Source of the DNA: a virus
Strand: one strand, 5' to 3'
Length of the DNA: 15,359 bases
Virus genome (UHGV): UHGV-1915822
Shown: one piece after another, positions 1,950-15,318 of the stretch
How the letters are laid out: every line of letters starts with the position of its first letter
How positions within the stretch are numbered: the stretch's first letter is position 1
Made by a program: the position numbers and the translations under genes
The notes under the pieces: model-generated
Database searches by the model: none
What the model was told of the DNA's origin: nothing
What the model saw: the letters and a program-made list of their open reading frames with translations, nothing else

Positions 1950-2623
1950 AAAATCTGGTTAAGCGTTTTAATGCAAAGGTTGCCCGAAATGTAAAAAAGG
2001 GTGGGTTGATTGCGGAGGTACAACCAGCACCAATAAAAACAGCCGAATTGCGGGAAACATTAAAAGCAATTAGCAGGCGGGATGTAAATTATAGCTTCCA
2101 AAAGCTGGAAAATTATTTGCGTAAGGGTGCAGAGATGCCATATACGACTAAGAAGGGTGTAAATACAACCGTATGGCAGAAAAAGGAAATTGACAGGGCA
2201 ATAAGAACGATTAACGCCAGAAACAGGCAAGAATTATCGGATTATGAAATTGGGCCATATAAAGGAAATATTGGGACGATTGAAAGAAGTAATATGCGTC
2301 CGAGAAAGAACAGAGTGCAAACGCTTGAGCCTAAAGATTGGGACAGATATGTGGAAAGGCTGGATCGGCAGGTTTATGCTACGAATATCAGTGCAAAGAG
2401 CGCAAGATATAAAGAAAATTTTTTAAAAGCGATTGAAACTACCTTCGGGTCTAACTCAAAGCTATATCAAGCGATTCGTAAAATACCCCCTGAAATGTTG
2501 CATGAATATTATTATACTGATCCAATTTTAACCGTTCAATTTGTATCTGATCCACGTGAAGCCGAAGAAATACAACGTAGGATGTTAGACCGATTAGATG
2601 AAGAAGGTTTACTTCTTGAGTGA
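1898..2623 (+). CDS. terminal protein (protein primer for DNA replication)
   Basis: 241 aa. N-terminus MPNAGKVRWREADEAKLKNLVKRFNAKVARNVKKGG aligns residue-for-residue in length with the recalled phi29 TP N-terminus MARSPRIRIKDNDKAEYARLVKNTKAKIARTKKKYG. Ribosome-binding site AAGGGGG (1881-1887). It is immediately upstream of the polymerase, and its stop overlaps the polymerase GTG start (GTGA). Confidence 0.8.
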   Translation: MPNAGKVRWREADEAKLKNLVKRFNAKVARNVKKGGLIAEVQPAPIKTAELRETLKAISRRDVNYSFQKLENYLRKGAEMPYTTKKGVNTTVWQKKEIDRAIRTINARNRQELSDYEIGPYKGNIGTIERSNMRPRKNRVQTLEPKDWDRYVERLDRQVYATNISAKSARYKENFLKAIETTFGSNSKLYQAIRKIPPEMLHEYYYTDPILTVQFVSDPREAEEIQRRMLDRLDEEGLLLE

Positions 2624-4299
2624 GATATTGCGCTGATTTTGAGACGATCAACGATAAAGATGATTGTCGGGTTTGGGCTTGGTGGATTTCTGAAATTGAC
2701 AATGAAGAAAACAGCGAAAAAGGAAATGACATTGACAGTTTTATGTCCTCTTTATTTATGTATTGCGGGGATACCGTGTATTTTCATAATTTAAAGTTTG
2801 ATGGTGAATTTATTTTAAATTGGCTTTTTAGGAATGGATATACGCATATTCGAGATACGAAATTTAGTAAGGAAAAAACTTTTACTACGTTAATTAGTGA
2901 TACAGGTGCATTTTATTCCATGAAGATTTGTTTTCTTATGCAGGATAAAAAGCCTTTATTTGTAACCATTATTGATAGCTTGAAGATTATTCCTTTAAGT
3001 ATTCGGCAAATGGCTAAGGCGTTCGGATTAGAAGTGTCAAAGGGAGAGATTGATTATAATGCCTTTCGGCCTGTTGGGTATGAACCCAGTGTGGAGGAAT
3101 GGGATTATATCAAGCGTGATGTATATATTGCTTGCCGGGCATTAAGTGTTTTGTTTAATCAGGGGTTAAAAAAGATTACGCAAGCCAGTAATGCAATGGC
3201 CGATTATAAAAAGACGATTCCGAAGAAATTTAGCCGTTGGTTTCCAAAGATTGCGTATGATGCAGATATTCGTAGGAGTTATAGAGGAGGGTTCACTTAT
3301 TTAAACCCAAAGTTTAAGGATATGGACTTAGGTGAGGGCATTGTATTAGATGTAAATAGTTTATATCCTTCTGTTATGTATTATGAGCGTTTACCGTATG
3401 GGGAGCCTATTGCTTTTGAAGGCGAGTACAAGCCGGATGATTTATATGATTTATACGTTCAAAAATTTGCGTGTCAATTTGAATTGAAGAAGGGAAAAAT
3501 TCCTACCGTACAATTAAAGAACAATTTGAGCTTTGTGCCGACGGAATATTTAACATCGTCAGGCGACCAATATGTAACGATGTATATGACGAATGTAGAT
3601 TTAAAATTATTTTTAGAAAATTACGATGTGTATGATCTGGATTATCATAGAGGCTGGAAATTTAAAAGCGCTGAAGGTTTATTTAAAGAATATATTGATA
3701 AATGGATGAAAATAAAGATTGAAAGTGATGGCGTGAATCCGGGTATGAGGCAATTAGCGAAGCTCATGTTAAATGCTTTATATGGTAAATTTGGATTAAA
3801 CCCTGAAATACGAAGTAAAATTCCTTATTTGGACGAAGGGATTATTAAATATCAAACGGTAAAGGAAGAAGATCGAGATCCAATATATATTCCGATGGCT
3901 TCTTTTATCACCAGTTATGCCAGAAATAAAACGATACGATCTGCGCAATCGGTATATGATCGTTTTGTGTATGCAGATACAGACAGCTTGCATTTATTGG
4001 GTTTTGATTATCCTGAGGGGCTGGATATTGACGCGCACCGGTTGGGGGCATGGAAGCCTGAAAGTCGTTTTCATCGTGCCCGTTTTTTACGCCAGAAATG
4101 CTATATTGAGGATGAATTGGATAAAGACGATCAAGCTAAAGGGTTAAAGATTGTGTGCTCAGGCTTACCGGAAGAATGCTATGGGCAGGTGAATTGGGAT
4201 AATTTTCATTATGGGGTGACGTACGAAGGTAAATTGTTCCCTTATCATGCAAAAGGGGGAATCGTATTGACAGAGGGAGAGTTCACCTTAAGGAAATAG
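2620..4299 (+). CDS. protein-primed family B DNA polymerase (phi29-type)
   Basis: 559 aa. Exo I motif in YCADFETIND, Exo II YFHNLKFDGEFIL, motif A DVNSLYPS, motif B KLMLNALYGKF, motif C YADTDS, and KxY in LRQKCY. All closely parallel phi29 DNA polymerase. GTG start at 2620. Confidence 0.95.
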   Translation: MRYCADFETINDKDDCRVWAWWISEIDNEENSEKGNDIDSFMSSLFMYCGDTVYFHNLKFDGEFILNWLFRNGYTHIRDTKFSKEKTFTTLISDTGAFYSMKICFLMQDKKPLFVTIIDSLKIIPLSIRQMAKAFGLEVSKGEIDYNAFRPVGYEPSVEEWDYIKRDVYIACRALSVLFNQGLKKITQASNAMADYKKTIPKKFSRWFPKIAYDADIRRSYRGGFTYLNPKFKDMDLGEGIVLDVNSLYPSVMYYERLPYGEPIAFEGEYKPDDLYDLYVQKFACQFELKKGKIPTVQLKNNLSFVPTEYLTSSGDQYVTMYMTNVDLKLFLENYDVYDLDYHRGWKFKSAEGLFKEYIDKWMKIKIESDGVNPGMRQLAKLMLNALYGKFGLNPEIRSKIPYLDEGIIKYQTVKEEDRDPIYIPMASFITSYARNKTIRSAQSVYDRFVYADTDSLHLLGFDYPEGLDIDAHRLGAWKPESRFHRARFLRQKCYIEDELDKDDQAKGLKIVCSGLPEECYGQVNWDNFHYGVTYEGKLFPYHAKGGIVLTEGEFTLRK

Positions 4300-4328: not shown

Positions 4329-4464
4329 AATATTGAGAAGGTAAGACGGAAAAACGGATCAAATGCTGTTATGGGTGCCACTGATGAAAGATTCAGCCAT
4401 AAAGCCGTGGGAGTGGTTTCTATTTGGTTTGTGCCGTTTTATCTTTTCTTTTTTAGGTGGTTTT

Positions 4465-5487
4465 ATGGGTAAATATTGGGACATCGGAAAAATTTTGAGT
4501 TATCAGCGTAATTTTAATTTTATCAATGGCGAACGATCAATAGGAAAAACCTACACGACGGAGAAGTTTTTTATTGAAAAAGCGATTAAAACAGGAAAAG
4601 AATTCGTGTATATTACTCGTACACAGGACGAAAAACGGAACGGAATATTTAAAGAAGCATTCAGCAAAGTAATATCGCGAGAATTTCCCGACAAAGAGAT
4701 TATTTTCACAAATGACGAATGTCTATTAAAAATTGCCGAATACAAAAGATGCTTAGGATATTGTATTGCATTAAGTGAAGCGTTAAAGATAAAGAAACGT
4801 TCTTTCCCGAATGTGTATTATTTAATGTTTGATGAATATATGCTGGAAAATAAAGGTTTAACCCGTTATGTAAATGGATGGAAGGAGCCGGAATTATTTT
4901 TATCTATTTATCATACCATTGACCGTGAAGAAGATCGCGTTATTTGTTTTTTATTGGGGAATAATACAACTTTTTATAACCCGTATCATATGCATCCTGC
5001 GTTTCAAATTCCCCATATAAAAAAGGGACAAATATGGTCAGGGGAGAACGTTCTTTTTCAATGGGCTGAAGGCACAGAAGAATTACGGGAAGAAAAAGCG
5101 AATTGTAAGTTCTTAAAAATGCTGAACGATACTACATATGGTAAATATGCGGTAAAAGGCGACTATATAGAAGATTCTGACGAATTTATTGAAAAAAGAA
5201 GCGCAGAAGCAAGAGTTAGCTTTAATATTGAATATATGGGAAATACCTATGGCATATGGAATGATATGAAGCATGGCCGAATTTACATTGATACAAAAAC
5301 AGACCCGGATTGTACCTTAAATTATGCTTTAACCTTAGAGGATCATAGTGAAAATACCATGTTGACATCAACGAAATCAATCTCTTGTTTAAATTGGCTT
5401 TCTCAAAATTTTAAACTGGGGAATGTTCGTTTTGTTTCTATGGAAGTAAAAAAGATGTGCGAGGGAGCCATCAATCTGATTTTATAG
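4465..5487 (+). CDS. DNA encapsidation (packaging) ATPase, phi29 gp16-like
   Basis: Walker A GERSIGKT and Walker B YYLMFDEY. ILSYQRNFNFINGERSIGKTY parallels phi29 gp16 MLSYDRILNFVIGARGIGKSY. I chose the ATG at 4465 (AGGTGG at 4455-4460) because it places Walker A at the same distance from the N-terminus as in phi29. The track's longest ORF starts at 4363 without a ribosome-binding site and adds a hydrophobic 34-aa extension, so the start is uncertain. Confidence 0.85.
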   Translation: MGKYWDIGKILSYQRNFNFINGERSIGKTYTTEKFFIEKAIKTGKEFVYITRTQDEKRNGIFKEAFSKVISREFPDKEIIFTNDECLLKIAEYKRCLGYCIALSEALKIKKRSFPNVYYLMFDEYMLENKGLTRYVNGWKEPELFLSIYHTIDREEDRVICFLLGNNTTFYNPYHMHPAFQIPHIKKGQIWSGENVLFQWAEGTEELREEKANCKFLKMLNDTTYGKYAVKGDYIEDSDEFIEKRSAEARVSFNIEYMGNTYGIWNDMKHGRIYIDTKTDPDCTLNYALTLEDHSENTMLTSTKSISCLNWLSQNFKLGNVRFVSMEVKKMCEGAINLIL

Positions 5488-5498
5488 GGGTTGATGAA

Positions 5499-5750
5499 AT
5501 GGATGTAAATACTGCGATTCAGTTAATTAACGGTGTAGGATTTCCCATTTTTGCGTGTATTGCTATGGGGGTGTTTGTTGTTTGGGACAAGAAAACCCGG
5601 AAAGACACGGAAGAAAAGCAACAAGATAAGCAGGAAAAGGTTTTAGAAAATATTACAACGGCTTTAAATCAAAATACTTTGGTTATTCAAAAGCTGGTAG
5701 ATAAGCTGGGAGGCGTAGACGATGCAAAAACTGACATTACCGGTAAATAA
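5499..5750 (+). CDS. small single-TM membrane protein, holin-like candidate
   Basis: ATG at 5499 with AGGGG 9 nt upstream; the track ORF starts at an in-frame GTG at 5457 overlapping the ATPase end. One hydrophobic segment GVGFPIFACIAMGVFVVW is followed by a highly charged tail KKTRKDTEEKQQDKQEK. It lies directly upstream of, and overlaps, the M23 peptidase gene. Confidence 0.4.
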   Translation: MDVNTAIQLINGVGFPIFACIAMGVFVVWDKKTRKDTEEKQQDKQEKVLENITTALNQNTLVIQKLVDKLGGVDDAKTDITGK

Positions 5751-6471
5751 TTGCGGAGTTACCTGCGGGTATAAAAATCAGAATTATCGGAATTATTGGG
5801 GATTTGGACATTACGGCGTTGACTATGTGTCCGATAGTCTTGTTCTCTATGCTTTAGGAAACGGCGAGGTGTTGATGAAAGGATGGGATAATCTTTTTGG
5901 CAACATCATTATTATTAAATACCCTGAGGTATATAATCATGCCACGGGTGAAGTAAAAGATTTAATTTGCCGTATGTATCACATGGCGAGTGAAAGTCCT
6001 TGTGAAGTTGGGTATCAAGTAAGCAGAGGAGAAAGCATTGGCATTATGGGGACGACAGGCCAATACTCTAGTGGTGTTCATGTCCATATTGAATTTGATA
6101 CCGACACGAAATATTATAATTACGGAGTTCCGTTGGCTAAGGATTCCAACCTGATTAAAAAGGGTGTGGATTCTACGGTTGATCCTTCGGACATTCTTTA
6201 TGTAGGTTCTAACCAGAGAGTTTACAATAATTCTCTAAATGGGTGGGCAACGGATAAAGAATTAAATTTGCCCTTATTGGACGAAGAACCCGAAAAACCA
6301 AAAGATCCCGAAATGAGTGAAGAATTGAAAAAACAACTGGATGAATTAGCATCCCGTGTTTCTAAAAATGAAAAAGATATATCGGATCTTTACACAGGAA
6401 TGGCGAAGAACGATGAATTTCGTGAAAATATGTTGAAAGCAATGGAGGCGGTTATAAATGGCTCTAACTAG
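5722..6471 (+). CDS. M23 family zinc metallopeptidase (peptidoglycan endopeptidase), virion-associated lysin or endolysin
   Basis: 249 aa. Contains HYGVD (HxxxD) and GTTGQYSSGVHVHIE (HxH), the hallmark LytM/M23 zinc-ligand motifs. Ribosome-binding site GGGAGG (5708-5713). The C-terminal ~100 aa is a charged coiled-coil-like region with no recognisable cell-wall-binding domain. Confidence 0.85.
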   Translation: MQKLTLPVNNCGVTCGYKNQNYRNYWGFGHYGVDYVSDSLVLYALGNGEVLMKGWDNLFGNIIIIKYPEVYNHATGEVKDLICRMYHMASESPCEVGYQVSRGESIGIMGTTGQYSSGVHVHIEFDTDTKYYNYGVPLAKDSNLIKKGVDSTVDPSDILYVGSNQRVYNNSLNGWATDKELNLPLLDEEPEKPKDPEMSEELKKQLDELASRVSKNEKDISDLYTGMAKNDEFRENMLKAMEAVINGSN

Positions 6472-6829
6472 AGACGAATATATGCAAATTTTAGAGCGCA
6501 TCAGTGAAACCGGCGGTTTTACGGAAGCTATGCTCGATGATTTGCAGAAGCTAAAAGACGATTACGATGAACGGGAAGGGATGCTGAAAGTCGAGGATGA
6601 AGCATCGGATAAAACCGTATATACGGATGATCAGGTGTATGATACCGACGGAGTAAGCTGGAGAGATAAATACGACGATATGAAGCGCCGGTATAAAGCA
6701 AGATTCTTTTCTACTCCTCTTGAAGCTAAAGAAGAGCAGATAGAAGATATTGCATCAGACAGCGACAGCACAACCCGTACCTATGAGGAAATTTTTGAAA
6801 CAAGAGAGGGAGATTATAATGCCGACTAA
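6458..6829 (+). CDS. putative head scaffolding protein
   Basis: 123 aa, highly acidic and helix-prone (rich in D/E/K/R), GGAGG at 6444-6448. It sits immediately upstream of the major capsid gene and overlaps it, as scaffold gene 7 does in phi29. No direct sequence match recalled, so the call rests on position and composition. Confidence 0.5.
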   Translation: MALTRDEYMQILERISETGGFTEAMLDDLQKLKDDYDEREGMLKVEDEASDKTVYTDDQVYDTDGVSWRDKYDDMKRRYKARFFSTPLEAKEEQIEDIASDSDSTTRTYEEIFETREGDYNAD

Positions 6830-8111
6830 ACAGACGTACAAAGCCTTGTCGCCTACTGCGCAGAACATGGATATTATGAACTATGTGCGTTCGCAGACCG
6901 ATTTTAATTATCAGAACAGAATCCCGATTGCAACACAGGAAAATTTAAACAACATTTATCAGACGATTCTTTGTAATTACGATTTGCAGAATGAGTTTAT
7001 TAAAACCCTTGTGAATCGTATTGCTCTGACTACCATTTCTTCCAAGCTGATTGAGAATCCCCTTGCCCCCTTGAAAAAGGGCGTAATTCGGCACGGTGAA
7101 TTTGTAAATGAATACTTTGTGAATATTGCAAAAGCGCATGAATTTGATCAGGGCGTTGCAGAGAAGGAGGTATTCAAACGGGAAATCCCGGATGTAGATG
7201 CAGTGTTTCATAAGCTGAACCTCAAGAACTTTTATAAAGTAACCATCTCGAATGAAATGCTCCGAGAAGCGTTCTTGTCCGACAGCGGTATTTCCGACAT
7301 GGTAAGTCGGATTATCGACAGCTTATACAGCGGGGCGAACTATGATGAATTCCTCTGCATGAAAAATATTATCGCAGAAGGGGCAAATAACGGAGCATTT
7401 TTGCCTGTTACGATTCCTGCTGTTACGGGCGATAATATTAAAGATGTGGTAGCAACCATCAAAGCGACTTCAATCAAACTGACGTTCCCCTCAACGAAAT
7501 ACAATGCTATGGGCGTTTTGACACTGACGAAACCCGAAGATCAGATTATTTTGATTGACCCTGATTTTGAGGCTTCAATGGATGTGAACGTTTTGGCAGC
7601 CGCTTTTAATCTCCCTTATGCTCAGTTCATGGCAAACCGGATTCCGATTGATGATTTCGGGGGGATTACCGGTGTCAAAGCCGCTCTTGTTGACCGTAAT
7701 TTCTTTATGGTGTTTGATTTTGAACAGTTGTTCACCGAAAATTACAATGGTCAGGGTTTGTATTGGAACTATTTCTATCATGTATGGAAAATGTTCTCCT
7801 ATTCTCCGTTCTCGAACGCTGTTTTGTTTACTACGGAAACGAATAGTGTACAGAGTGTTGATGTAACGCCCGCAACGGCAACGGTAGCAAGAGGAAATAC
7901 CCAGCAAATGACCGCTGTTGTAGCAACTACCGGCTTTGCACCGAAATCGGTTGATTGGACGGTAACCGGTGCGCAAACTCCAACTTCCTCGATCACCAAT
8001 ACCGGTCTTTTGAGTGTTGCAACCAATGAACCGAATACCACTTTGACGGTAAAAGCAACCAGTACTTTCGATTCCTCGAAATCGGATACCGCCAGCATTA
8101 CCGTTGGCTAA
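6819..8111 (+). CDS. major capsid protein with C-terminal bacterial Ig-like (Big_2-type) domain
   Basis: Start chosen at ATG 6819 (GAGGGAG at 6805-6811); the track ORF begins in-frame upstream at 6750 inside the scaffold gene. NEFIKTLVNRIALTTI parallels phi29 gp8 NDFITTLVDRIGLVVI. The C-terminal ~90 aa (VDVTPATATVARGNTQQMTAVVATTGF...TVKATS...ASITVG) has the Big_2 pattern. Confidence 0.8.
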   Translation: MPTKQTYKALSPTAQNMDIMNYVRSQTDFNYQNRIPIATQENLNNIYQTILCNYDLQNEFIKTLVNRIALTTISSKLIENPLAPLKKGVIRHGEFVNEYFVNIAKAHEFDQGVAEKEVFKREIPDVDAVFHKLNLKNFYKVTISNEMLREAFLSDSGISDMVSRIIDSLYSGANYDEFLCMKNIIAEGANNGAFLPVTIPAVTGDNIKDVVATIKATSIKLTFPSTKYNAMGVLTLTKPEDQIILIDPDFEASMDVNVLAAAFNLPYAQFMANRIPIDDFGGITGVKAALVDRNFFMVFDFEQLFTENYNGQGLYWNYFYHVWKMFSYSPFSNAVLFTTETNSVQSVDVTPATATVARGNTQQMTAVVATTGFAPKSVDWTVTGAQTPTSSITNTGLLSVATNEPNTTLTVKATSTFDSSKSDTASITVG

Positions 8112-8166: not shown

Positions 8167-9804
8167 ATGGAAATTATACCGAATGGAGTTGTAAGGCTAT
8201 GCGCGAATATCCCTTGGGATCCTACCTATAGCGATGTTCGGAAATTTAACAGCGTAGGAGAGCAAACCTCATATATAGCAGGGAAAGCGATTAAAACCTA
8301 TAATAATGTATCCTACCAACGTCCGACATCTAGTGTAGCCCCTCCACGGCCTGCCTTTACCTGCGCTGTACCCGATGTAGCCGATGATCTTTATAACTGT
8401 AACTATATTATGTTTCAAAATACAAATTTCGGCTCAAAATGGTTTTACGGTTTTGTCCGACAGGTAAATTATGTAAACCCGAATTGTACCCATATTGTAT
8501 ATGAAATAGACCAATATCAAACTTGGTGTTTTGATTACGAAGTATTACCGTCTTATGTAGAGAGGGAACACGCCGAAACCGATGAATTATATGAAAACCT
8601 ACAGCCTGAACCGTTTACAGGGTTAGAGACCATTGTAACGGATATTCAAACCGTGCGTCCCAATGGGGGTAGCCCCGATTATAAGATTGTGGTTTGCACA
8701 AACGCTGTTCCGGAAACAGGAGAACCCTCTCCCGGTCAGGTTATTGATAACGTATATTCAGGACTTACCTTTACAGAGTTTTCAGCCAGTGACGGCGGAG
8801 CCGCCGCAAACAATTTTATAAAAGGCTTCAGTGCAGGAACATGGGATCGAATTTTAGATGGGGAAATCCCCTATTTAAGAGCAAGGATTGATGCCATTAT
8901 CAGTATTTTTATGTCACCTTATTCTGTTGTATCTCCCCCAACAAACGACACCGTGACCTTAGAACGGCCTACTACGTTAAATGGTTACGAGCCCAAAAAT
9001 AAAAAAATGCTTACCTATCCGTATTGTTGTTTGGATGTATCGAATAACTGTGGACAAACAAGAACATACTTATACGAAAAATTTACAACGGGAACATCTG
9101 TGTTTCCTATTGAATTCAATCAATATTATACCGCAGGATTTAACCCGACGATTGTTTCATTACCCTCGTTTTATGATAGTGATACAACCGTACAAGGACG
9201 GGGTAACGCAGATATGGCTATTCAGCTTTCAACCTTCCCAGTATGTGGGTGGAGCGGAGACGCTTTCAGCGATTGGCTAAATAATGAATATCAATCAAAA
9301 CAAAGCGGGATTTTATCGAATTTAGCAATCGGTATTGCCGGTGTGTTATTATCAGCAGGAACAGGAGGGGTAGCCGGTACAGCTTTAGCAGTAGGGGCAG
9401 GCAGGGAATTATTAAGCGGTATTTCCGAAGGTGCTTCGTTAGGAAGAGAAAAACAACTTCGTTCACAATCACAGGGTGCTACAATGGCAACCCCGTTAAA
9501 TAGTAGCTTTAATTTCAAAACAGACAGTGTAGGCATCACCTATAAACAAAAAGCTATCCGTGCGGAAATGGCCGAAGCGATTGATAGCTATTTTGATATG
9601 TATGGCTATGCGACTAACAAGGTCAAGGTGCCGAATGAGGATAGCCGCCCGTCATGGAATTATGTAAAATGCGATAATGTCATCATTCACGGCTCATGCC
9701 CGGTTGAAGCCATTACCACGATAAAAACCCTTTATAATAACGGCGTTCGTTTTTGGCATACCGACAGCGTGGGAAACTTTGCTTTATATAATGGGGTGGA
9801 ATAA
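8167..9804 (+). CDS. tail knob protein (phi29 gp9-like)
   Basis: 545 aa. YIMFQNTNFGSKWFYGFV parallels phi29 gp9 YIMFQNADYGNKWFYAFV, and C-terminal RFWHTDSVGNF parallels TLWHTDNIGNY. Ribosome-binding site AAAGGGTGA. Confidence 0.85.
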   Translation: MEIIPNGVVRLCANIPWDPTYSDVRKFNSVGEQTSYIAGKAIKTYNNVSYQRPTSSVAPPRPAFTCAVPDVADDLYNCNYIMFQNTNFGSKWFYGFVRQVNYVNPNCTHIVYEIDQYQTWCFDYEVLPSYVEREHAETDELYENLQPEPFTGLETIVTDIQTVRPNGGSPDYKIVVCTNAVPETGEPSPGQVIDNVYSGLTFTEFSASDGGAAANNFIKGFSAGTWDRILDGEIPYLRARIDAIISIFMSPYSVVSPPTNDTVTLERPTTLNGYEPKNKKMLTYPYCCLDVSNNCGQTRTYLYEKFTTGTSVFPIEFNQYYTAGFNPTIVSLPSFYDSDTTVQGRGNADMAIQLSTFPVCGWSGDAFSDWLNNEYQSKQSGILSNLAIGIAGVLLSAGTGGVAGTALAVGAGRELLSGISEGASLGREKQLRSQSQGATMATPLNSSFNFKTDSVGITYKQKAIRAEMAEAIDSYFDMYGYATNKVKVPNEDSRPSWNYVKCDNVIIHGSCPVEAITTIKTLYNNGVRFWHTDSVGNFALYNGVE

Positions 9805-10706
9805 TGGATTGTATGAAATTATTTGGACATAAACCTCCTAAAAAATACGCGCATTTGATTATGAATCACCGTACGTTTTGGGATTACTATTACCGTTTAT
9901 TGGGATTAAGCGTAAATTTATTTGAATGGAAAAATATACCCGATACCATTGACCCCAGATTTCTGGAGCTTACCTTGATTGAACGCGGATATGCAGTATA
10001 CTTTAATGATGAAGTATTAGGGGATCTTGCATTACCCTGTAGGATTGGTACTCCTTTAAATGTATATCGGATACCTGTTAGAAGAACTGCCTACTCGGTA
10101 AATGGATATAATAAGGATCTTACCATAGAAAATTCGGTTATGATCTTTAATAATTATCTGCACACTCCTTCTGTAGAAACAATCCTTCTTTTTGCCGGAA
10201 GATTGGCCGAAATTGAACGAACAATCGATGTAAATGTAAAAGCGCAAAAAACGCCTGTCACAATTCTTTGCGAACCACAGCAGGAATTTACCTTTAAAAA
10301 CTTTTACAACAAGGTGTCAGAAAATGAGCCGGTTATTATCGGAAACGCGCAAGGGTTTTCATTAGACAGCGTAAAGGTTCTGAATACCGCTTCTCCCTAT
10401 GTAGGCGACAAGCTCAATATTTTAAAGCGTCAAATATGGAATGAAGCGCTAACCTTCCTTGGGATTGAAAATGTTTCAAGTGATAAGAAAGAAAGGCTTG
10501 TCAGTGATGAAGTAGAAACCAACCTTGGCGCAGTAGCCGCGCAACGCTATACCCTTTTAAATTCCCGCAGAGAAGCAGCAGAAAAGATCAATAAAATGTT
10601 CGGTACGAATATTGAAGTAAACTTTAGGGCTGAAACGAGAACAGAGGAAAGAATTGCAGATTTACCCGAAAACGAGTATAATGGTTATAGAGAGGAAGTG
10701 GAATAA
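9804..10706 (+). CDS. portal / upper collar connector protein (phi29 gp10-like)
   Basis: 300 aa. LFEWKNIPDTIDPRFLE, KAQKTPVTIL and KKERLVSDEV parallel phi29 gp10 LFEWENLPPTINPSFLE, NAQKTPVLIR and KKERMVTDEV. TAATG overlap with the tail knob stop. Confidence 0.85.
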   Translation: MDCMKLFGHKPPKKYAHLIMNHRTFWDYYYRLLGLSVNLFEWKNIPDTIDPRFLELTLIERGYAVYFNDEVLGDLALPCRIGTPLNVYRIPVRRTAYSVNGYNKDLTIENSVMIFNNYLHTPSVETILLFAGRLAEIERTIDVNVKAQKTPVTILCEPQQEFTFKNFYNKVSENEPVIIGNAQGFSLDSVKVLNTASPYVGDKLNILKRQIWNEALTFLGIENVSSDKKERLVSDEVETNLGAVAAQRYTLLNSRREAAEKINKMFGTNIEVNFRAETRTEERIADLPENEYNGYREEVE

Positions 10707-11731
10707 TGGCCGAATATAGCATTGAATTAGGTACATTAGTAAAAATGGGCTATCCGCTTGCTCTTAATGATTACCCGATCTTTCGCGAAGATTACCGGGA
10801 AATACTAAACCGAAAAATTATCGATCACTTCTATTTCCGTGAAATTGGTTTTGAAACGCCCGACCGTTTTAATCATTTCCTCCATATGGTGATGCATGAA
10901 AACATGCCGTATTTCAACCAATTATATGAGAGTGAATTCTTAAAGTTTGACCCTCTCAGCACGGACTATTTTGAAGAGGTATCGGAGGATGTAACGAACA
11001 ATATAAAAGCGGGCAGACGGGACAACACACACACCCAAACCGAAACCACCGGTGACAGGTATACTTCGTTACATTCTCTCGATTCCTCCATCAACGTTGT
11101 TGGTAATGTATCCGACAAGGGAAATATTAACGATACCGAGAACATTACTTCAAAATCAACCCAAACGAATGATTTGACTACACAGGTAAATTCAAGCAGT
11201 CAAGGTGACGGAACACAAGACACGACCGGAAGCAGAACCAAATATTTTTCCGATATGCCGCAAACCGCAATTACCAATACCACAACGGTTAATCCCGATG
11301 GAAGCGTCACCTATTCTACAAACGGTTATGCAACCACCATGGAAACGGAAAGCACAGCCCAGCACGATGTTACCCATACCGAGGAAACGGGGCAATCTAC
11401 ATCGACCAATACCGGCACTATTGTCACCGAGGGAGAAAGCGACCGAACCTATGGAAGAACAACCACAAATACAACCGATGAAACCAACGATAGAACCCAA
11501 AAAGACACCCAACACGAAGATACACAACGCAATATCCTGAACAATTTGTCTTTCTTAGACAATGCGGTCAATAGCGAGGCAACCGATGAAACAAGAAAAA
11601 GTAAAAATGCTCGGAAAGGGCGCTCCGGCGTTTCTCCTTCTTCCCTTATTCAGGAATATCGGAATACGTTTTTAAATATTGATAAACAGGTTATTGCAAG
11701 CCTCGAAAATTTATTTATGGGGGTATTCTAA
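10706..11731 (+). CDS. lower collar protein (phi29 gp11-like) with long polar low-complexity insert
   Basis: 341 aa. Position between portal and appendage genes matches gene 11 in phi29. TAATG overlaps on both sides. The central ~170 aa is T/S/N/D/E/Q-rich low complexity. Confidence 0.6.
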   Translation: MAEYSIELGTLVKMGYPLALNDYPIFREDYREILNRKIIDHFYFREIGFETPDRFNHFLHMVMHENMPYFNQLYESEFLKFDPLSTDYFEEVSEDVTNNIKAGRRDNTHTQTETTGDRYTSLHSLDSSINVVGNVSDKGNINDTENITSKSTQTNDLTTQVNSSSQGDGTQDTTGSRTKYFSDMPQTAITNTTTVNPDGSVTYSTNGYATTMETESTAQHDVTHTEETGQSTSTNTGTIVTEGESDRTYGRTTTNTTDETNDRTQKDTQHEDTQRNILNNLSFLDNAVNSEATDETRKSKNARKGRSGVSPSSLIQEYRNTFLNIDKQVIASLENLFMGVF

Positions 11732-14700
11732 TGTACGATTGCAACAAAAAGCCTTGCACTCCACCTCCTGTGGATCCATGCGAGCATCACCATCCTTGTG
11801 GCCCGGATTTTCCGAATTTTTGCCCTCCTCCTGCTCCCCACCCTGCCCCTTATCAGCCTCCTTGCCCATCCGTTGCGGAGGGCTCTTCGCTATATGAGGC
11901 CGTCAACAATCTGACGAATCGCGTCAACACCTGTATGGCAACCTATAACGATGTAATGGCAAACTGCTATAAAACACTTCACAATCTGGAATGCGCGGCA
12001 CAGGAAAACGGGGCATATTATGATTGCCATGAGGTATGGACAGAAACCGGTTATCAGCCGGACGAAAGCGCAACCTATACCATTATTCATAAAGCCGTTG
12101 TCGACCGACGCGGTGAGCCGATCCGTATGCAATTACATCTTGCTTATGGAAATACGACTAATTCGCAGATTACCCAAAACTTATTTTCTGCATCCGAAGT
12201 AACGCTGGCAGACAAAATTGTCCCGGCTATTCCTCTTACCGGTACAGGCTGGTATGGTAATGCGATTATAAACGGTTGCCCGATTCCTTCAACCGAAGCC
12301 TCTACCTATTATACAGTTGGCTTTACGAAAAAAGGTGTAATGCGCTATTACCCGAATTCGGTATCGGTTGATCAAATGTTAAAGGATACCATTGAGAATG
12401 CCATGGGGTGCTCAGGCGTTCTCATTATCAACAGCCAGATTGCAAATGATGCATTCTTTGAGCATATCCCGAACGCTACCGAACAAAAAGCACGTATCGT
12501 TATGGGCCAAAACTACGATACCCGCGAGGTCATGATTCTCGTATGCGGACAGGAAAACAATGTTGATAAAAAAGGTCTCACTTCTAAAGCGTGCGCCGAA
12601 ATTCTTCTTCAGTATGGTTGTGACATCGCCGTGGAGCTTTCCGAAGGTGACAGCGCAGGAGCATGTGACAAAGGGCAACTGATGTTCGTCCCCGACAATA
12701 ACAATGTGCCGGAGACTTACGCATTCTGGTATATCTCCCGCAAATGCTTCTATTGCAATGATTACCAGCGTGAACTCGCAAAGCTCATGCAGAATTATGG
12801 AACTTGTCTTTGGCAAACATATTTGAATAAAAAGAAAATCGAACAGCTTCGGGAGGATTTGAATACCGAAATCACAAATCGCGAGGATGCCGATCAGGTA
12901 TTGCAAAACCAAATCCTCGAAGAAGTCGATAATCGCGTTAAAGCTGACGAAGTATTGCAAAACCAAATCCTTGCAGAGGTCGATAACCGCGTTAAAGCAG
13001 ACGAAGTATTACAAAACCAAATCCTCGCGGAAGTGGACAACAGAGTTAACGCAGATAATGTCCTGCAAAACCAGATCCTTACGGAAGTAGACGCGAGAAA
13101 AAATGCAGACGATGTTTTACAAAATCAAATCCTTGAGGAAGTAAAAAATAGAGAAAACGCAGATAACACCCTGCAAGAACAAATCCTTACCGAAACAAAC
13201 GCAAGAATCGATGCGGATGAATCCCTGCAAAATCAAATTATTACCGAAACAAACGCCCGTGTCGCGTATGATGAAAACTTACAAGCACAAATTACAAAAG
13301 AAGTAACCGATAGAACAAATGCGGATGCTACCCTGCATCAAGAAATATTAACCGAACAAGGCGAAAGAATCGCCGCAGATGAAGTTCTTCAAAGAAATAT
13401 CAACGAAGAAGCCGCTACTAGAGCAGAAGAAGATACAAAACTACAAGGTAATATTGATGCAGAAACAACCGCCAGACAAGAAGCAGATGCCACCCTGCAA
13501 TCGAATATCGACGCATTGGCACAAAGAGTAACCGTCCTTGAAACGGATGTCGATCAGCTTCAAACCCTCTATAATTCCTTGCAGGAACAAACCGCCGCAA
13601 TGGATACAGCCATTACTTCCATTCAGCAAACGATTGCTTCTATTGAAACTTCTCTGAATAATGTAAAAACCTCTATCGACAATATCACCAACGGTACAAC
13701 ACTCCTGCCGTATTTGCCGATCAAAGGCGGTACAATGCAAGGTTCCATCAACATGAATAATAAATCGATTACCAATGTTCCTTCTCCTTCAGCAGACGGC
13801 GACGCGGTAAACAAAAAATATGTTGATGACGCGATTGCAGGTGGTATTACTCCTCCAACAGGCGACTATCTCCCCTTATCCGGCGGTACCATGACGGGAA
13901 ACATCAACATGAATAACAACCGTGTAACCTCTGTAGGAGCGCCCAGCGCAGGTACAGATGCAGTAAATAAAGACTATGTTGATGATGAAATCGCAACCGC
14001 AGGAGATGGAAAATTCCTTCCGTTGGCAGGTGGCGCATTAACCGGCGCAGTTACTACTACCGAAACTGAATTTGAAAATAATGAGCTTGTTACAAAATCG
14101 TATGTAGATGGACAGGTTGCAACCGCTGGAAATGGAAAATTCCTTCCATTAGCAGGTGGAACCATGACCGGGGCAATCAACATGGGTAATCAGAAAGTAA
14201 CAGCGGTCGCTACGCCTACTACAGGCACCGATGCTACCAATAAAACCTATGTGGATAACGCCATTTCTACTGCCGGAAATGGAAAATTCCTGCCGTTAGC
14301 AGGCGGAACTATGACCGGAGCAATCAATATGGGTAATCAAAAAGTAACAGCAGTCGCCACCCCGACAGATGGCTCAGATGCCGCAAATAAACAATATGTT
14401 GATCAAGCTGTTGCCGGTTCGTCTTATACGCTGCCTGCCGCTACTACTACTACACTTGGAGGTGTAAAGGTTGGAGAAGGTTTGTCCGTTACCGCGGATG
14501 GCACGTTGTCGGCTACGGGTGGAAGCACAGATATTCCCATTGCAAGCGATACCGTTCTTGGTGGAATTAAAGTCGGGGAATCACTTTCTATTGAAGCTGA
14601 CGGTACTTTAAGCGTTGTTGCATCCGATAATCCTACTACTCCGCGAATGCCTGTTAATAAAGAGTATGTCGATAATCAGCTCGACAATTTTGTAGCAAAA

Positions 14701-15318
14701 ACTGGCGATACTATGACAGGGCATTTATCAATGAGCAATCGATCAAACGTTAAAATTTTAGATGATGACGATGAACCTGTTGCAAGTCTTGGTTATCTGT
14801 TTGGCGTTACAAAACCTAGAGGAATTATATCTTTCTTAAAAAACCCGGGCACCATCAATAACCTATTTAATGAAAATTATCTTGCTACGTATGCCTTAAA
14901 TCAACGAGAAGCTGTAAACTATGTAGGACGTACATTCAAATTCGGTGGAACCTTTACGGGAGGAGCATATAACTGTGTTGCTACACATTTAGGATTTGAA
15001 GATCCTAATGGTAAGGCTTCCAGATATGCAAATGTCAAATTAGATATTGACATCTATTGCTTAACTCCTATTACGACTGCTCCTTCCTTTGCCTTCAATC
15101 TACCAACTTCTATTTTTACGGTAAGAACTGGAACTATCACAGACGAAATATGGAAATTTACATACGCAGATAATGTATATTTGAATATTACTGCTCAAGA
15201 AGGTGGTACTATTATTTGTAAATTTGGAGGTTCACCTGCCGTTGGTAGGCATATTTCTGCTACGATTATACCTTATCAGCTTGCTTGGAGTATTGATCCG
15301 GCTATCAATCTTCATTAA
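11731..15318 (+). CDS. pre-neck appendage / tail fibre protein (gp12-position), multidomain
   Basis: 1195 aa at the gene-12 position. Contains a Cys/Pro/His-rich N-terminus, an N-terminal globular region of ~280 aa, about 15 tandem 14-aa repeats, five phage tail-fibre-type repeats (LPLAGGTMTG...NK.YVD), two GG-VKVGE-DGTLS repeats, and a distinct C-terminal domain. Confidence 0.85.
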   Translation: MYDCNKKPCTPPPVDPCEHHHPCGPDFPNFCPPPAPHPAPYQPPCPSVAEGSSLYEAVNNLTNRVNTCMATYNDVMANCYKTLHNLECAAQENGAYYDCHEVWTETGYQPDESATYTIIHKAVVDRRGEPIRMQLHLAYGNTTNSQITQNLFSASEVTLADKIVPAIPLTGTGWYGNAIINGCPIPSTEASTYYTVGFTKKGVMRYYPNSVSVDQMLKDTIENAMGCSGVLIINSQIANDAFFEHIPNATEQKARIVMGQNYDTREVMILVCGQENNVDKKGLTSKACAEILLQYGCDIAVELSEGDSAGACDKGQLMFVPDNNNVPETYAFWYISRKCFYCNDYQRELAKLMQNYGTCLWQTYLNKKKIEQLREDLNTEITNREDADQVLQNQILEEVDNRVKADEVLQNQILAEVDNRVKADEVLQNQILAEVDNRVNADNVLQNQILTEVDARKNADDVLQNQILEEVKNRENADNTLQEQILTETNARIDADESLQNQIITETNARVAYDENLQAQITKEVTDRTNADATLHQEILTEQGERIAADEVLQRNINEEAATRAEEDTKLQGNIDAETTARQEADATLQSNIDALAQRVTVLETDVDQLQTLYNSLQEQTAAMDTAITSIQQTIASIETSLNNVKTSIDNITNGTTLLPYLPIKGGTMQGSINMNNKSITNVPSPSADGDAVNKKYVDDAIAGGITPPTGDYLPLSGGTMTGNINMNNNRVTSVGAPSAGTDAVNKDYVDDEIATAGDGKFLPLAGGALTGAVTTTETEFENNELVTKSYVDGQVATAGNGKFLPLAGGTMTGAINMGNQKVTAVATPTTGTDATNKTYVDNAISTAGNGKFLPLAGGTMTGAINMGNQKVTAVATPTDGSDAANKQYVDQAVAGSSYTLPAATTTTLGGVKVGEGLSVTADGTLSATGGSTDIPIASDTVLGGIKVGESLSIEADGTLSVVASDNPTTPRMPVNKEYVDNQLDNFVAKTGDTMTGHLSMSNRSNVKILDDDDEPVASLGYLFGVTKPRGIISFLKNPGTINNLFNENYLATYALNQREAVNYVGRTFKFGGTFTGGAYNCVATHLGFEDPNGKASRYANVKLDIDIYCLTPITTAPSFAFNLPTSIFTVRTGTITDEIWKFTYADNVYLNITAQEGGTIICKFGGSPAVGRHISATIIPYQLAWSIDPAINLH
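12868..13530 (+). repeat. tandem 42-bp (14-codon) repeats, about 15 units, inside the appendage gene
   Basis: Unit consensus at protein level is roughly N-R-x-x-A-D-x-x-L-Q-N-Q-I-L-x-E-V-D. Adjacent DNA units are near-identical, for example GTATTGCAAAACCAAATCCT recurs at 42-bp spacing. Confidence 0.8.
13711..14420 (+). repeat. five tail-fibre repeat units of 126-147 bp; the last two are near-identical 147-bp direct repeats
   Basis: Protein units LP(L/I)xGGTMxG.INM.N..VT.V..P....DA.NK.YVD. The DNA copies beginning near 14125 and 14272 are almost identical over about 147 bp. Confidence 0.8.
14431..14620 (+). repeat. two ~30-codon repeats (T-LGG-KVGE-L-ADGTLS)
   Basis: LPAATTTTLGGVKVGEGLSVTADGTLSA followed by IPIASDTVLGGIKVGESLSIEADGTLSV. 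Confidence 0.7.

Follow-up and report, generated by a model that had tools for sequence, protein, structure and literature searches.

The closest described systems to the locus studied here are found in two cultured phi29-like podoviruses, Bacillus phage VMY22 (Salasmaviridae) and Kurthia phage vb_KgiM_P1 (Kurthia P1). The gene of VMY22 gp17 (YP_009198022.1) immediately follows the lower collar gene ('adaptor Ad4'), and that of Kurthia P1 gp13 (MP1_13, USH90190.1) lies one small open reading frame (ORF) past it. Both proteins are short (538-547 amino acids, aa). In each, an N-terminal helical region leads into a NAGPA-fold domain, which retains the DGGGS motif and a downstream Arg, and the chain ends in a C-terminal domain. 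They are annotated as 'Phosphodiester glycosidase domain-containing protein' (VMY22 gp17, UniProt/BFVD) and 'phosphodiester glycosidase family protein' (Kurthia MP1_13). The DNA analysed here, UHGV virus genome UHGV-1915822 (15,359 nucleotides, nt; hereafter the window), derives from the genome of a phi29-like podovirus. Its tail appendage or fibre ORF (11731-15318, + strand, 1195 aa) lies directly downstream of the lower collar gene, as in VMY22, and its product carries near the N-terminus a domain of NAGPA/DUF2233 fold. We put at roughly 55% the probability that this domain is a strongly conserved, probably non-catalytic part of a trimeric fibre of modular build, situated near the virion.

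In phi29, the same position after the lower collar gene is held by the pre-neck appendage gp12, within a similar gene set (terminal protein, type-B polymerase, gp16, gp8-type capsid, gp9 and gp10). This protein is said, after Xiang et al. 2009, to be a teichoic-acid-degrading beta-helix with an autochaperone. By analogy with gp12, the window fibre would presumably be a host-adsorption organelle. Its architecture is unlike that of gp12, as it combines the NAGPA-fold module with a long coiled coil, fibre repeats and a unique tip that together span aa 346-1195, and no match to a beta-helix, a pectate-lyase-type depolymerase or a gp12-type autochaperone was obtained in Pfam and PHROG searches of the fibre protein. 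An earlier note on this DNA had proposed a phosphodiester glycosidase in the appendage as a different enzymatic solution for phi29-like phages, but VMY22 and Kurthia P1 provide a precedent, with motif-intact domains at or beside the same locus. Phi29-like appendages with a phosphodiester glycosidase domain are thus known already; what is new is a large clade of gut phages in which the motif is lost, the domain is highly conserved and the fibre is a long coiled coil.

Tail or structural modules are likewise joined to this fold in SPO1 gp2.43, SPbeta YomE, Staphylococcus phage EW ORF005, Staphylococcus phage vB_SscM-1, Twort-like phages and Enterococcus EH-TP1 gp9, and such proteins carry NAGPA-like annotations in SPO1-like, Twort-like, SPbeta and other phages. 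The other phage NAGPA proteins examined are from myo- and siphoviruses, whose tails are built differently, and they keep DGGGS and the Arg. Their action on wall glycopolymers is predicted only, as is that of the NAGPA-like 'depolymerases' of Curtobacterium prophages (PMC9862828). The window domain was linked by tblastn to SPO1-like and Mammaliicoccus sciuri phages, and hhalign (99.3%) and BFVD matches supported the same relationship.

The fold itself was established by several methods. The peptide on which the earlier note was built, RIVMGQNYDTREVMILVCGQENNVDKKGLTSKACAEILLQYGCDIAVELSEGDSAG, is present at aa 255-310 of the fibre protein (nt 12493-12660, + strand), inside the segment 11890-12720 (aa 54-330) that the note had singled out. 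The domain assignment of the note was correct: PF09992, hhalign and Foldseek identify this peptide as the C-terminal half of a true NAGPA/DUF2233-type domain, close to the N-terminus of the appendage. Pfam family PF09992 (NAGPA), expected by the note over residues ~55-330, matched aa 54-330 at 30.3 bits (E 5.7e-7), above its gathering cut-off of 25 bits; aa 47-372 matched likewise, at up to 30.6 bits. Thirty-two of 36 diverse relatives also matched PF09992 individually, with a best E of 3e-11. When the family profile was searched against the PDB sequence set, the DUF2233 structure 3OHG was found at E 2.3e-5 and vertebrate NAGPA chains at E ~0.03. Only profiles reached 3OHG and NAGPA: phmmer with the single domain sequence gave no match among the PDB sequences. 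The NCBIfam search returned sub-threshold noise only.

An AlphaFold (AF2) model of aa 47-372 (a 326-aa query), built from 36 diverse sequences of the search of representative clusters, had a pLDDT of 93.1 and a pTM of 0.89, compared with a pLDDT of 35 from a shallow 8-sequence alignment. In this monomer model, the globular domain (~96-345) is preceded by a long helix (aa 54-93), and from aa 344 another long helix leads on into the stalk. Foldseek of the model against the PDB gave 15 matches at E 6e-14 to 3e-7, all of them NAGPA/DUF2233-family chains, the next match having an E of 0.08; the structural prediction thus agreed with the fold proposed in the earlier note. Identity to the solved structures, namely vertebrate NAGPA or uncovering enzyme (6PKU, 6PKG, 6PKI, 6U11) and Bacteroides ovatus BACOVA_00430 (DUF2233, 3OHG), is just 12-16%. 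The window domain differs from these in the loss of the DGGGS and R316 that they conserve, in having no propeptide or EGF stalk, and in belonging to a viral fibre where it is flanked by long helices. These results demonstrated that aa ~96-345 (12016-12765, + strand) form a genuine NAGPA/DUF2233-fold domain.

The domain was also shown to be homologous to the phosphodiester glycosidase domains of VMY22 gp17 and Kurthia P1 gp13. Comparison by hhalign with canonical phage NAGPA-domain proteins gave probabilities of 99.3% (E 1e-20) and 99.6% (E 1e-24). The latter comparison, of the window family with the VMY22/Kurthia type (E 1.3e-24), extended over 269 columns and placed query positions 27-300 opposite aa 100-375 of VMY22 gp17, so that the match to the helical N-region of gp17 begins inside the N-terminal helix of the fibre. 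VMY22 gp17 was also a BFVD structural match of the window domain. Sequence identity to the VMY22 and Kurthia proteins is ~17-23%. An N-terminal helix followed by a NAGPA fold, in an appendage gene at or beside the post-collar position, is common to all three proteins. The ~300-aa coiled coil of the window protein has no counterpart in the two described proteins, nor do its fibre repeats and its Pro/Cys-rich leader; conversely, the clade of the window has neither the DGGGS nor the downstream Arg.

The significance of this loss follows from work on the human enzyme. A cryo-EM study of 2026 (PMC13474241) described the DGGGS loop (human NAGPA 286-290) as strictly invariant from bacteria to man and as holding the sugar-phosphate; D286A, G288A, G289A and S290A abolish activity. 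The same study showed that R316 stabilises the leaving phosphate and is essential, its mutants being inactive. Other ligand contacts of the human enzyme are E226/T227 (N-acetyl group), T260 (phosphate) and F140 (base of the pocket). Alignments to 3OHG, vertebrate NAGPA and phage NAGPA proteins identified S304-E305-G306-D307-S308 (12640-12654, + strand) as the DGGGS-equivalent loop of the window protein, with Ser304 at the position of the essential Asp. The C-terminal signature that the earlier note had recognised therefore holds in part. The R-x-x-x-G stretch (R255...G259), the hydrophobic strand and G-[LM]-T (G282-L-T284) are retained as in canonical members, whereas the L-D-G-G-G-S-like motif, although in the right place, reads L-S-E-G-D-S and matches only at the Leu, the middle Gly and the Ser. 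The register was agreed by four independent gap-free alignments (3OHG, vertebrate NAGPA and two hhalign runs). The conserved D313-K314-G315 ('LDKG') was also considered as the true DGGGS equivalent, displaced by a 9-residue insertion, and was rejected, as the four alignments set DKG opposite L/V-N/R-G, downstream of the motif. The equivalent of the essential Arg (human R316, VMY22 R350) is Glu328 (12712-12714, + strand), in an hhalign register of VPETYAFWYI against IDRKQGDFLYI. Two further motifs that do not vary among the phage homologues, G-R and N-A-S, are gone as well, and the region of human T260 aligns with the variable G273-Q274-E275.

The loss extends to the whole clade. DGGGS was present in none of 148 representative relatives and at none of 20 IMG/VR loci, whereas DGGGS and the Arg were kept in all eight canonical phage homologues used as a control (SPO1 gp2.43, a Mammaliicoccus sciuri phage ORF, VMY22 gp17, Kurthia P1 gp13, SPbeta YomE, Staphylococcus phage EW ORF005, Enterococcus EH-TP1 gp9 and an ORF of human-gut phage MT836730). 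Among the 148 relatives, position 304 is Cys in 57, Ala in 40, Ser in 26 and Asp in a single one, while the column of position 328 holds Glu (41), Thr (19), Asp (16), Ser (16), Lys (14) and Arg (4). Within the domain, the entropy percentiles of the D, G, G and S equivalents are 0.56, 0.66, 0.99 and 0.79, and that of the Arg equivalent is 0.92. These positions are thus among the most variable, least constrained of the domain, and are drifting. Since the Asp, two Gly and the phosphate-stabilising Arg have been replaced, the domain most likely no longer cleaves glycosyl-1-phosphate linkages.

In contrast to its former active site, the domain as a whole is strongly conserved and ranks with the best conserved of the virion modules. 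An exhaustive hidden Markov model search found 294 representative clusters (defined at 50% identity) at E<=1e-3, of which 204 were at E<=1e-30. In all of the 150 matches listed, the domain starts near the N-terminus, and the proteins are 600-1470 aa long, save for a few short fragments. BLAST with the modules of the window protein among 146 full-length relatives matched the NAGPA-like module in all 146, the coiled coil in 84, the fibre repeats in 62 and the last 195 residues in none. The NAGPA-like module was thereby shown to be the sole part common to all relatives, the coil, repeat and tip modules being interchangeable. This is the pattern commonly seen, in which the module nearest the virion stays constant and the receptor-binding parts farther out can be exchanged. 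Across the 20 IMG/VR loci, the N-terminal domain shares 39-71% identity with that of the window, compared with 33-55% shared by the lower collar and 27-58% by the knob. Because the identity of the domain equals or exceeds that of the two core virion proteins, it is under strong purifying selection despite the lost catalytic set.

Taken together, these features suggest that the window domain is probably a retained scaffold or sugar-binding module rather than a wall-degrading enzyme. In the mechanism that we propose, the replacement of the catalytic residues in the gut-phage clade would have abolished glycosyl-phosphate cleavage. The module would have been kept as a collar-proximal 'shoulder' of a long trimeric fibre, where it may organise the trimer and its attachment to the collar; in the model, long helices flank the domain on either side, and the C-terminal one runs into a stalk of ~300 residues. 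The old cleft possibly retains a non-catalytic binding of wall glycopolymer, and host specificity would be left to the hypervariable C-terminal tip.

Several observations weigh against this mechanism. The family has its own set of conserved polar residues, namely N141-T-T-N-S145, S155, D161-K162, R255, Q260-N261, E302 and D313-K314-G315. Four of these lie beside the old loop and are kept in most of the 148 relatives (E302 in 116, D313 in 115, K314 in 118 and G315 in 146); E302 shares a strand with the lost Asp, two residues ahead of it, and from there could face the old cleft. Moreover, the identity of the N-terminal domain showed no visible tracking of lower-collar identity across the 20 loci. 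Finally, no measured activity of any bacterial or phage phosphodiester glycosidase (NAGPA homologue) was found in the literature searched, so the 'canonical' requirements are extrapolated from the vertebrate enzymes.

A rather doubtful proposal is that of a pseudo-NAGPA or neo-NAGPA, into which the clade would have converted an ancestral phosphodiester glycosidase domain of the appendage. The domain would then be either a relocated acid/base enzyme using E302, E305, D313, K314 and the NTTNS loop, or a lectin-like adhesin that grips sugar-phosphate wall polymers and leaves them uncut. Taken by itself, the enzymatic alternative holds that the NAGPA fold is still catalytic with a new residue set (e.g. 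E302, E305, D313, K314 and the NTTNS loop). Its target would be a wall component found in every host of the clade, and the bond attacked may still be a glycosyl-phosphate or else a glycosidic one. A domain conserved as well as or better than core virion proteins, with near-invariant polar residues around the old loop, would fit this explanation, and the motif-intact homologues at the same architectural position make an enzymatic ancestry likely. However, the positions lining the canonical sugar-phosphate site vary more than most others in the domain, and the interchangeable replacement of the Asp by Cys, Ala or Ser indicates that the replacing residue is not a nucleophile. The conservation is equally explicable by protein-protein interfaces, and we consider such a rewired enzyme, although the leading alternative, unlikely.

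It is far less probable that the domain is an active, canonical phosphodiester glycosidase, as the earlier note had envisaged, which would cleave sugar-1-phosphate-linked wall glycopolymers as an analogue of the phi29 gp12 beta-helix. The significant PF09992 match, the NAGPA fold and the conserved R-x-x-x-G and G-[LM]-T elements would all be expected of such an enzyme. Yet the DGGGS and the R316-equivalent Arg, invariant in vertebrate, bacterial and phage homologues, have given way to SEGDS and Glu328 in the window and are missing clade-wide. Mutation of these residues abolishes NAGPA activity (PMC13474241), and at the sequence level this explanation is already largely refuted. A chance resemblance to NAGPA by an unrelated fold, to which the empty phmmer search, the low identity to solved structures and the failure of a full-length hmmscan to list PF09992 (an omission suspected to arise from the long repetitive coiled coil triggering HMMER's bias filter) might point, is excluded for practical purposes.

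The remaining parts of the fibre ORF were delimited from its translation, the model and profile matches; PHROG tail-fibre families match aa 600-1010. The protein opens with a Pro/Cys/His-rich leader (aa 1-46, 11731-11868, + strand; 17 Pro, 6 Cys and 4 His), whose Cys and Pro columns are partly conserved across the family and which is possibly a virion anchor. It is followed by the long N-terminal alpha-helix that precedes the globular domain (11869-12015, + strand; residues 8-47 of the 326-aa model query). Nineteen of the 22 cysteines of the protein fall within aa 1-359 (nt 11731-12807), 6 of them in the leader and 13 in the NAGPA-like module, and aa 360-1081 contain none. Across 148 family members, C297 is conserved in 130, C31 in 91 and C17 in 83. 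This clustering could be a sign that the virion-proximal end binds metal or is stapled by disulfides.

Beyond the domain, a helical or coiled-coil stalk covers aa ~346-658 (12766-13704, + strand), supported by the C-terminal helix of the model and by weak leucine-zipper and XhlA matches. It holds eight 18-aa repeats 'xxADxVLQNQILxEVxNR' (aa 385-534), encoded by a 54-nt tandem DNA array (12898-13194, 83% matches), which looks like a recent repeat expansion setting the length of the fibre. The fibre repeat region (aa ~659-1000, 13705-14730, + strand) was recognised from its repeats and from matches to PHROG tail-fibre and 'head decoration' families. Five repeats of ~49 aa, each opening with 'LPLxGGTMTG', lie at 13714-14430, and a 147-nt duplication was found at 14128-14403. 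These repeats are weakly similar to the phi29 head-fibre protein gp8.5 (3QC7, E 0.0014). The hypervariable C-terminal tip (aa 1001-1195, 14731-15315, + strand), which is the part without BLAST matches among the full-length relatives, is presumed to be the receptor-binding end.

All recognisable genes of the window are on the + strand. They encode an SSB (1162-1602), a p4-like late activator (1641-1949), a terminal protein (1898-2623), a type-B DNA polymerase (2620-4299), the gp16 packaging ATPase (4363-5487), two lysis functions, namely a holin-like ORF and an M23 peptidase (5722-6471), a phi29-type capsid protein with a Big_2 domain (6750-8111), the gp9 tail knob (8167-9804), the gp10 connector (9804-10706) and the gp11-type lower collar (10706-11731). 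The lower collar gene matched phrog_3225 ('adaptor Ad4', E 3.8e-26) and phrog_5472 (lower collar, E 1.2e-9). The position of the fibre ORF directly after it, which is that of phi29 gp12, was kept in 20 of 20 IMG/VR relatives, and the order capsid, knob, connector, lower collar and fibre gene was constant in these contigs of 10.5-17.5 kb. At the junction, the lower-collar stop codon and the ATG of the fibre gene share 1 nt (TAATG, 11729-11733). A GGGG run lies 8-11 nt upstream, and together these features suggest translational coupling of the two genes.

The organisation of the window is unlike that of phi29 in that the + strand carries every recognisable gene, those for SSB, terminal protein and DNA polymerase among them, and in that the packaging ATPase, the holin-like ORF and the M23 peptidase are placed between the polymerase and the capsid gene. 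The GC content climbs from ~0.30 on the left to ~0.45 on the right. No inverted terminal repeats of at least 20 nt were found in the window. Comparison of its full length with 50,697 phage records by megablast gave no match, and the assembly collection searched contained no exact copy of the fibre ORF. The closest GenBank phages are two unannotated 'Bacteriophage sp.' contigs of 16-17 kb from human faeces, with 32% identity.

Two further observations were made on related phage proteins. The 16.4-kb human-gut phage contig MT836730.1 encodes, at 619-1629, a protein of ~336 aa with an apparent lipoprotein-like N-terminus and intact NAGPA motifs ('NGGFF', 'DGGGS' and a downstream 'ERSV'). Gut phages therefore harbour NAGPA domains of both kinds, canonical and degenerate. 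In addition, three motif-intact phage NAGPA proteins, namely SPO1 gp2.43 (locus L002, 2932-4245), the protein of locus L003 (2656-4368) and VMY22 gp17 (locus L004, 6695-8338), resemble one another at their C-terminal ends, where 'AIPF...R..' precedes Trp residues. This suggests a C-terminal binding domain common to Bacillus and Staphylococcus myo- and podoviruses.

These findings bear on annotation, since pipelines label the relatives of the window protein 'phosphodiester glycosidase' (PF09992 is precomputed for relatives P0001, P0002 and P0005, and BFVD names them likewise), yet the clade does not have the residues for that chemistry. The clade comprises ~204 clusters at 50% identity, and the related GenBank phage records come from human faecal samples. 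Homologous appendage proteins with the motif intact (VMY22, Kurthia P1) and without it (the window clade) form a natural contrast, which could help to establish if phage NAGPA domains have enzymatic activity at all and what role a pseudoenzyme conserved in a tail fibre plays. Of interest for phage engineering, it is the N-terminal module that stays constant in this highly modular fibre, the tips being freely swapped. If the pseudo- or neo-NAGPA were real, it would be the first one described, acting from the virion-proximal end of a fibre of ~45 nm or longer, and would represent a conserved, host-independent adsorption module in many uncultured phi29-like phages of the human gut.

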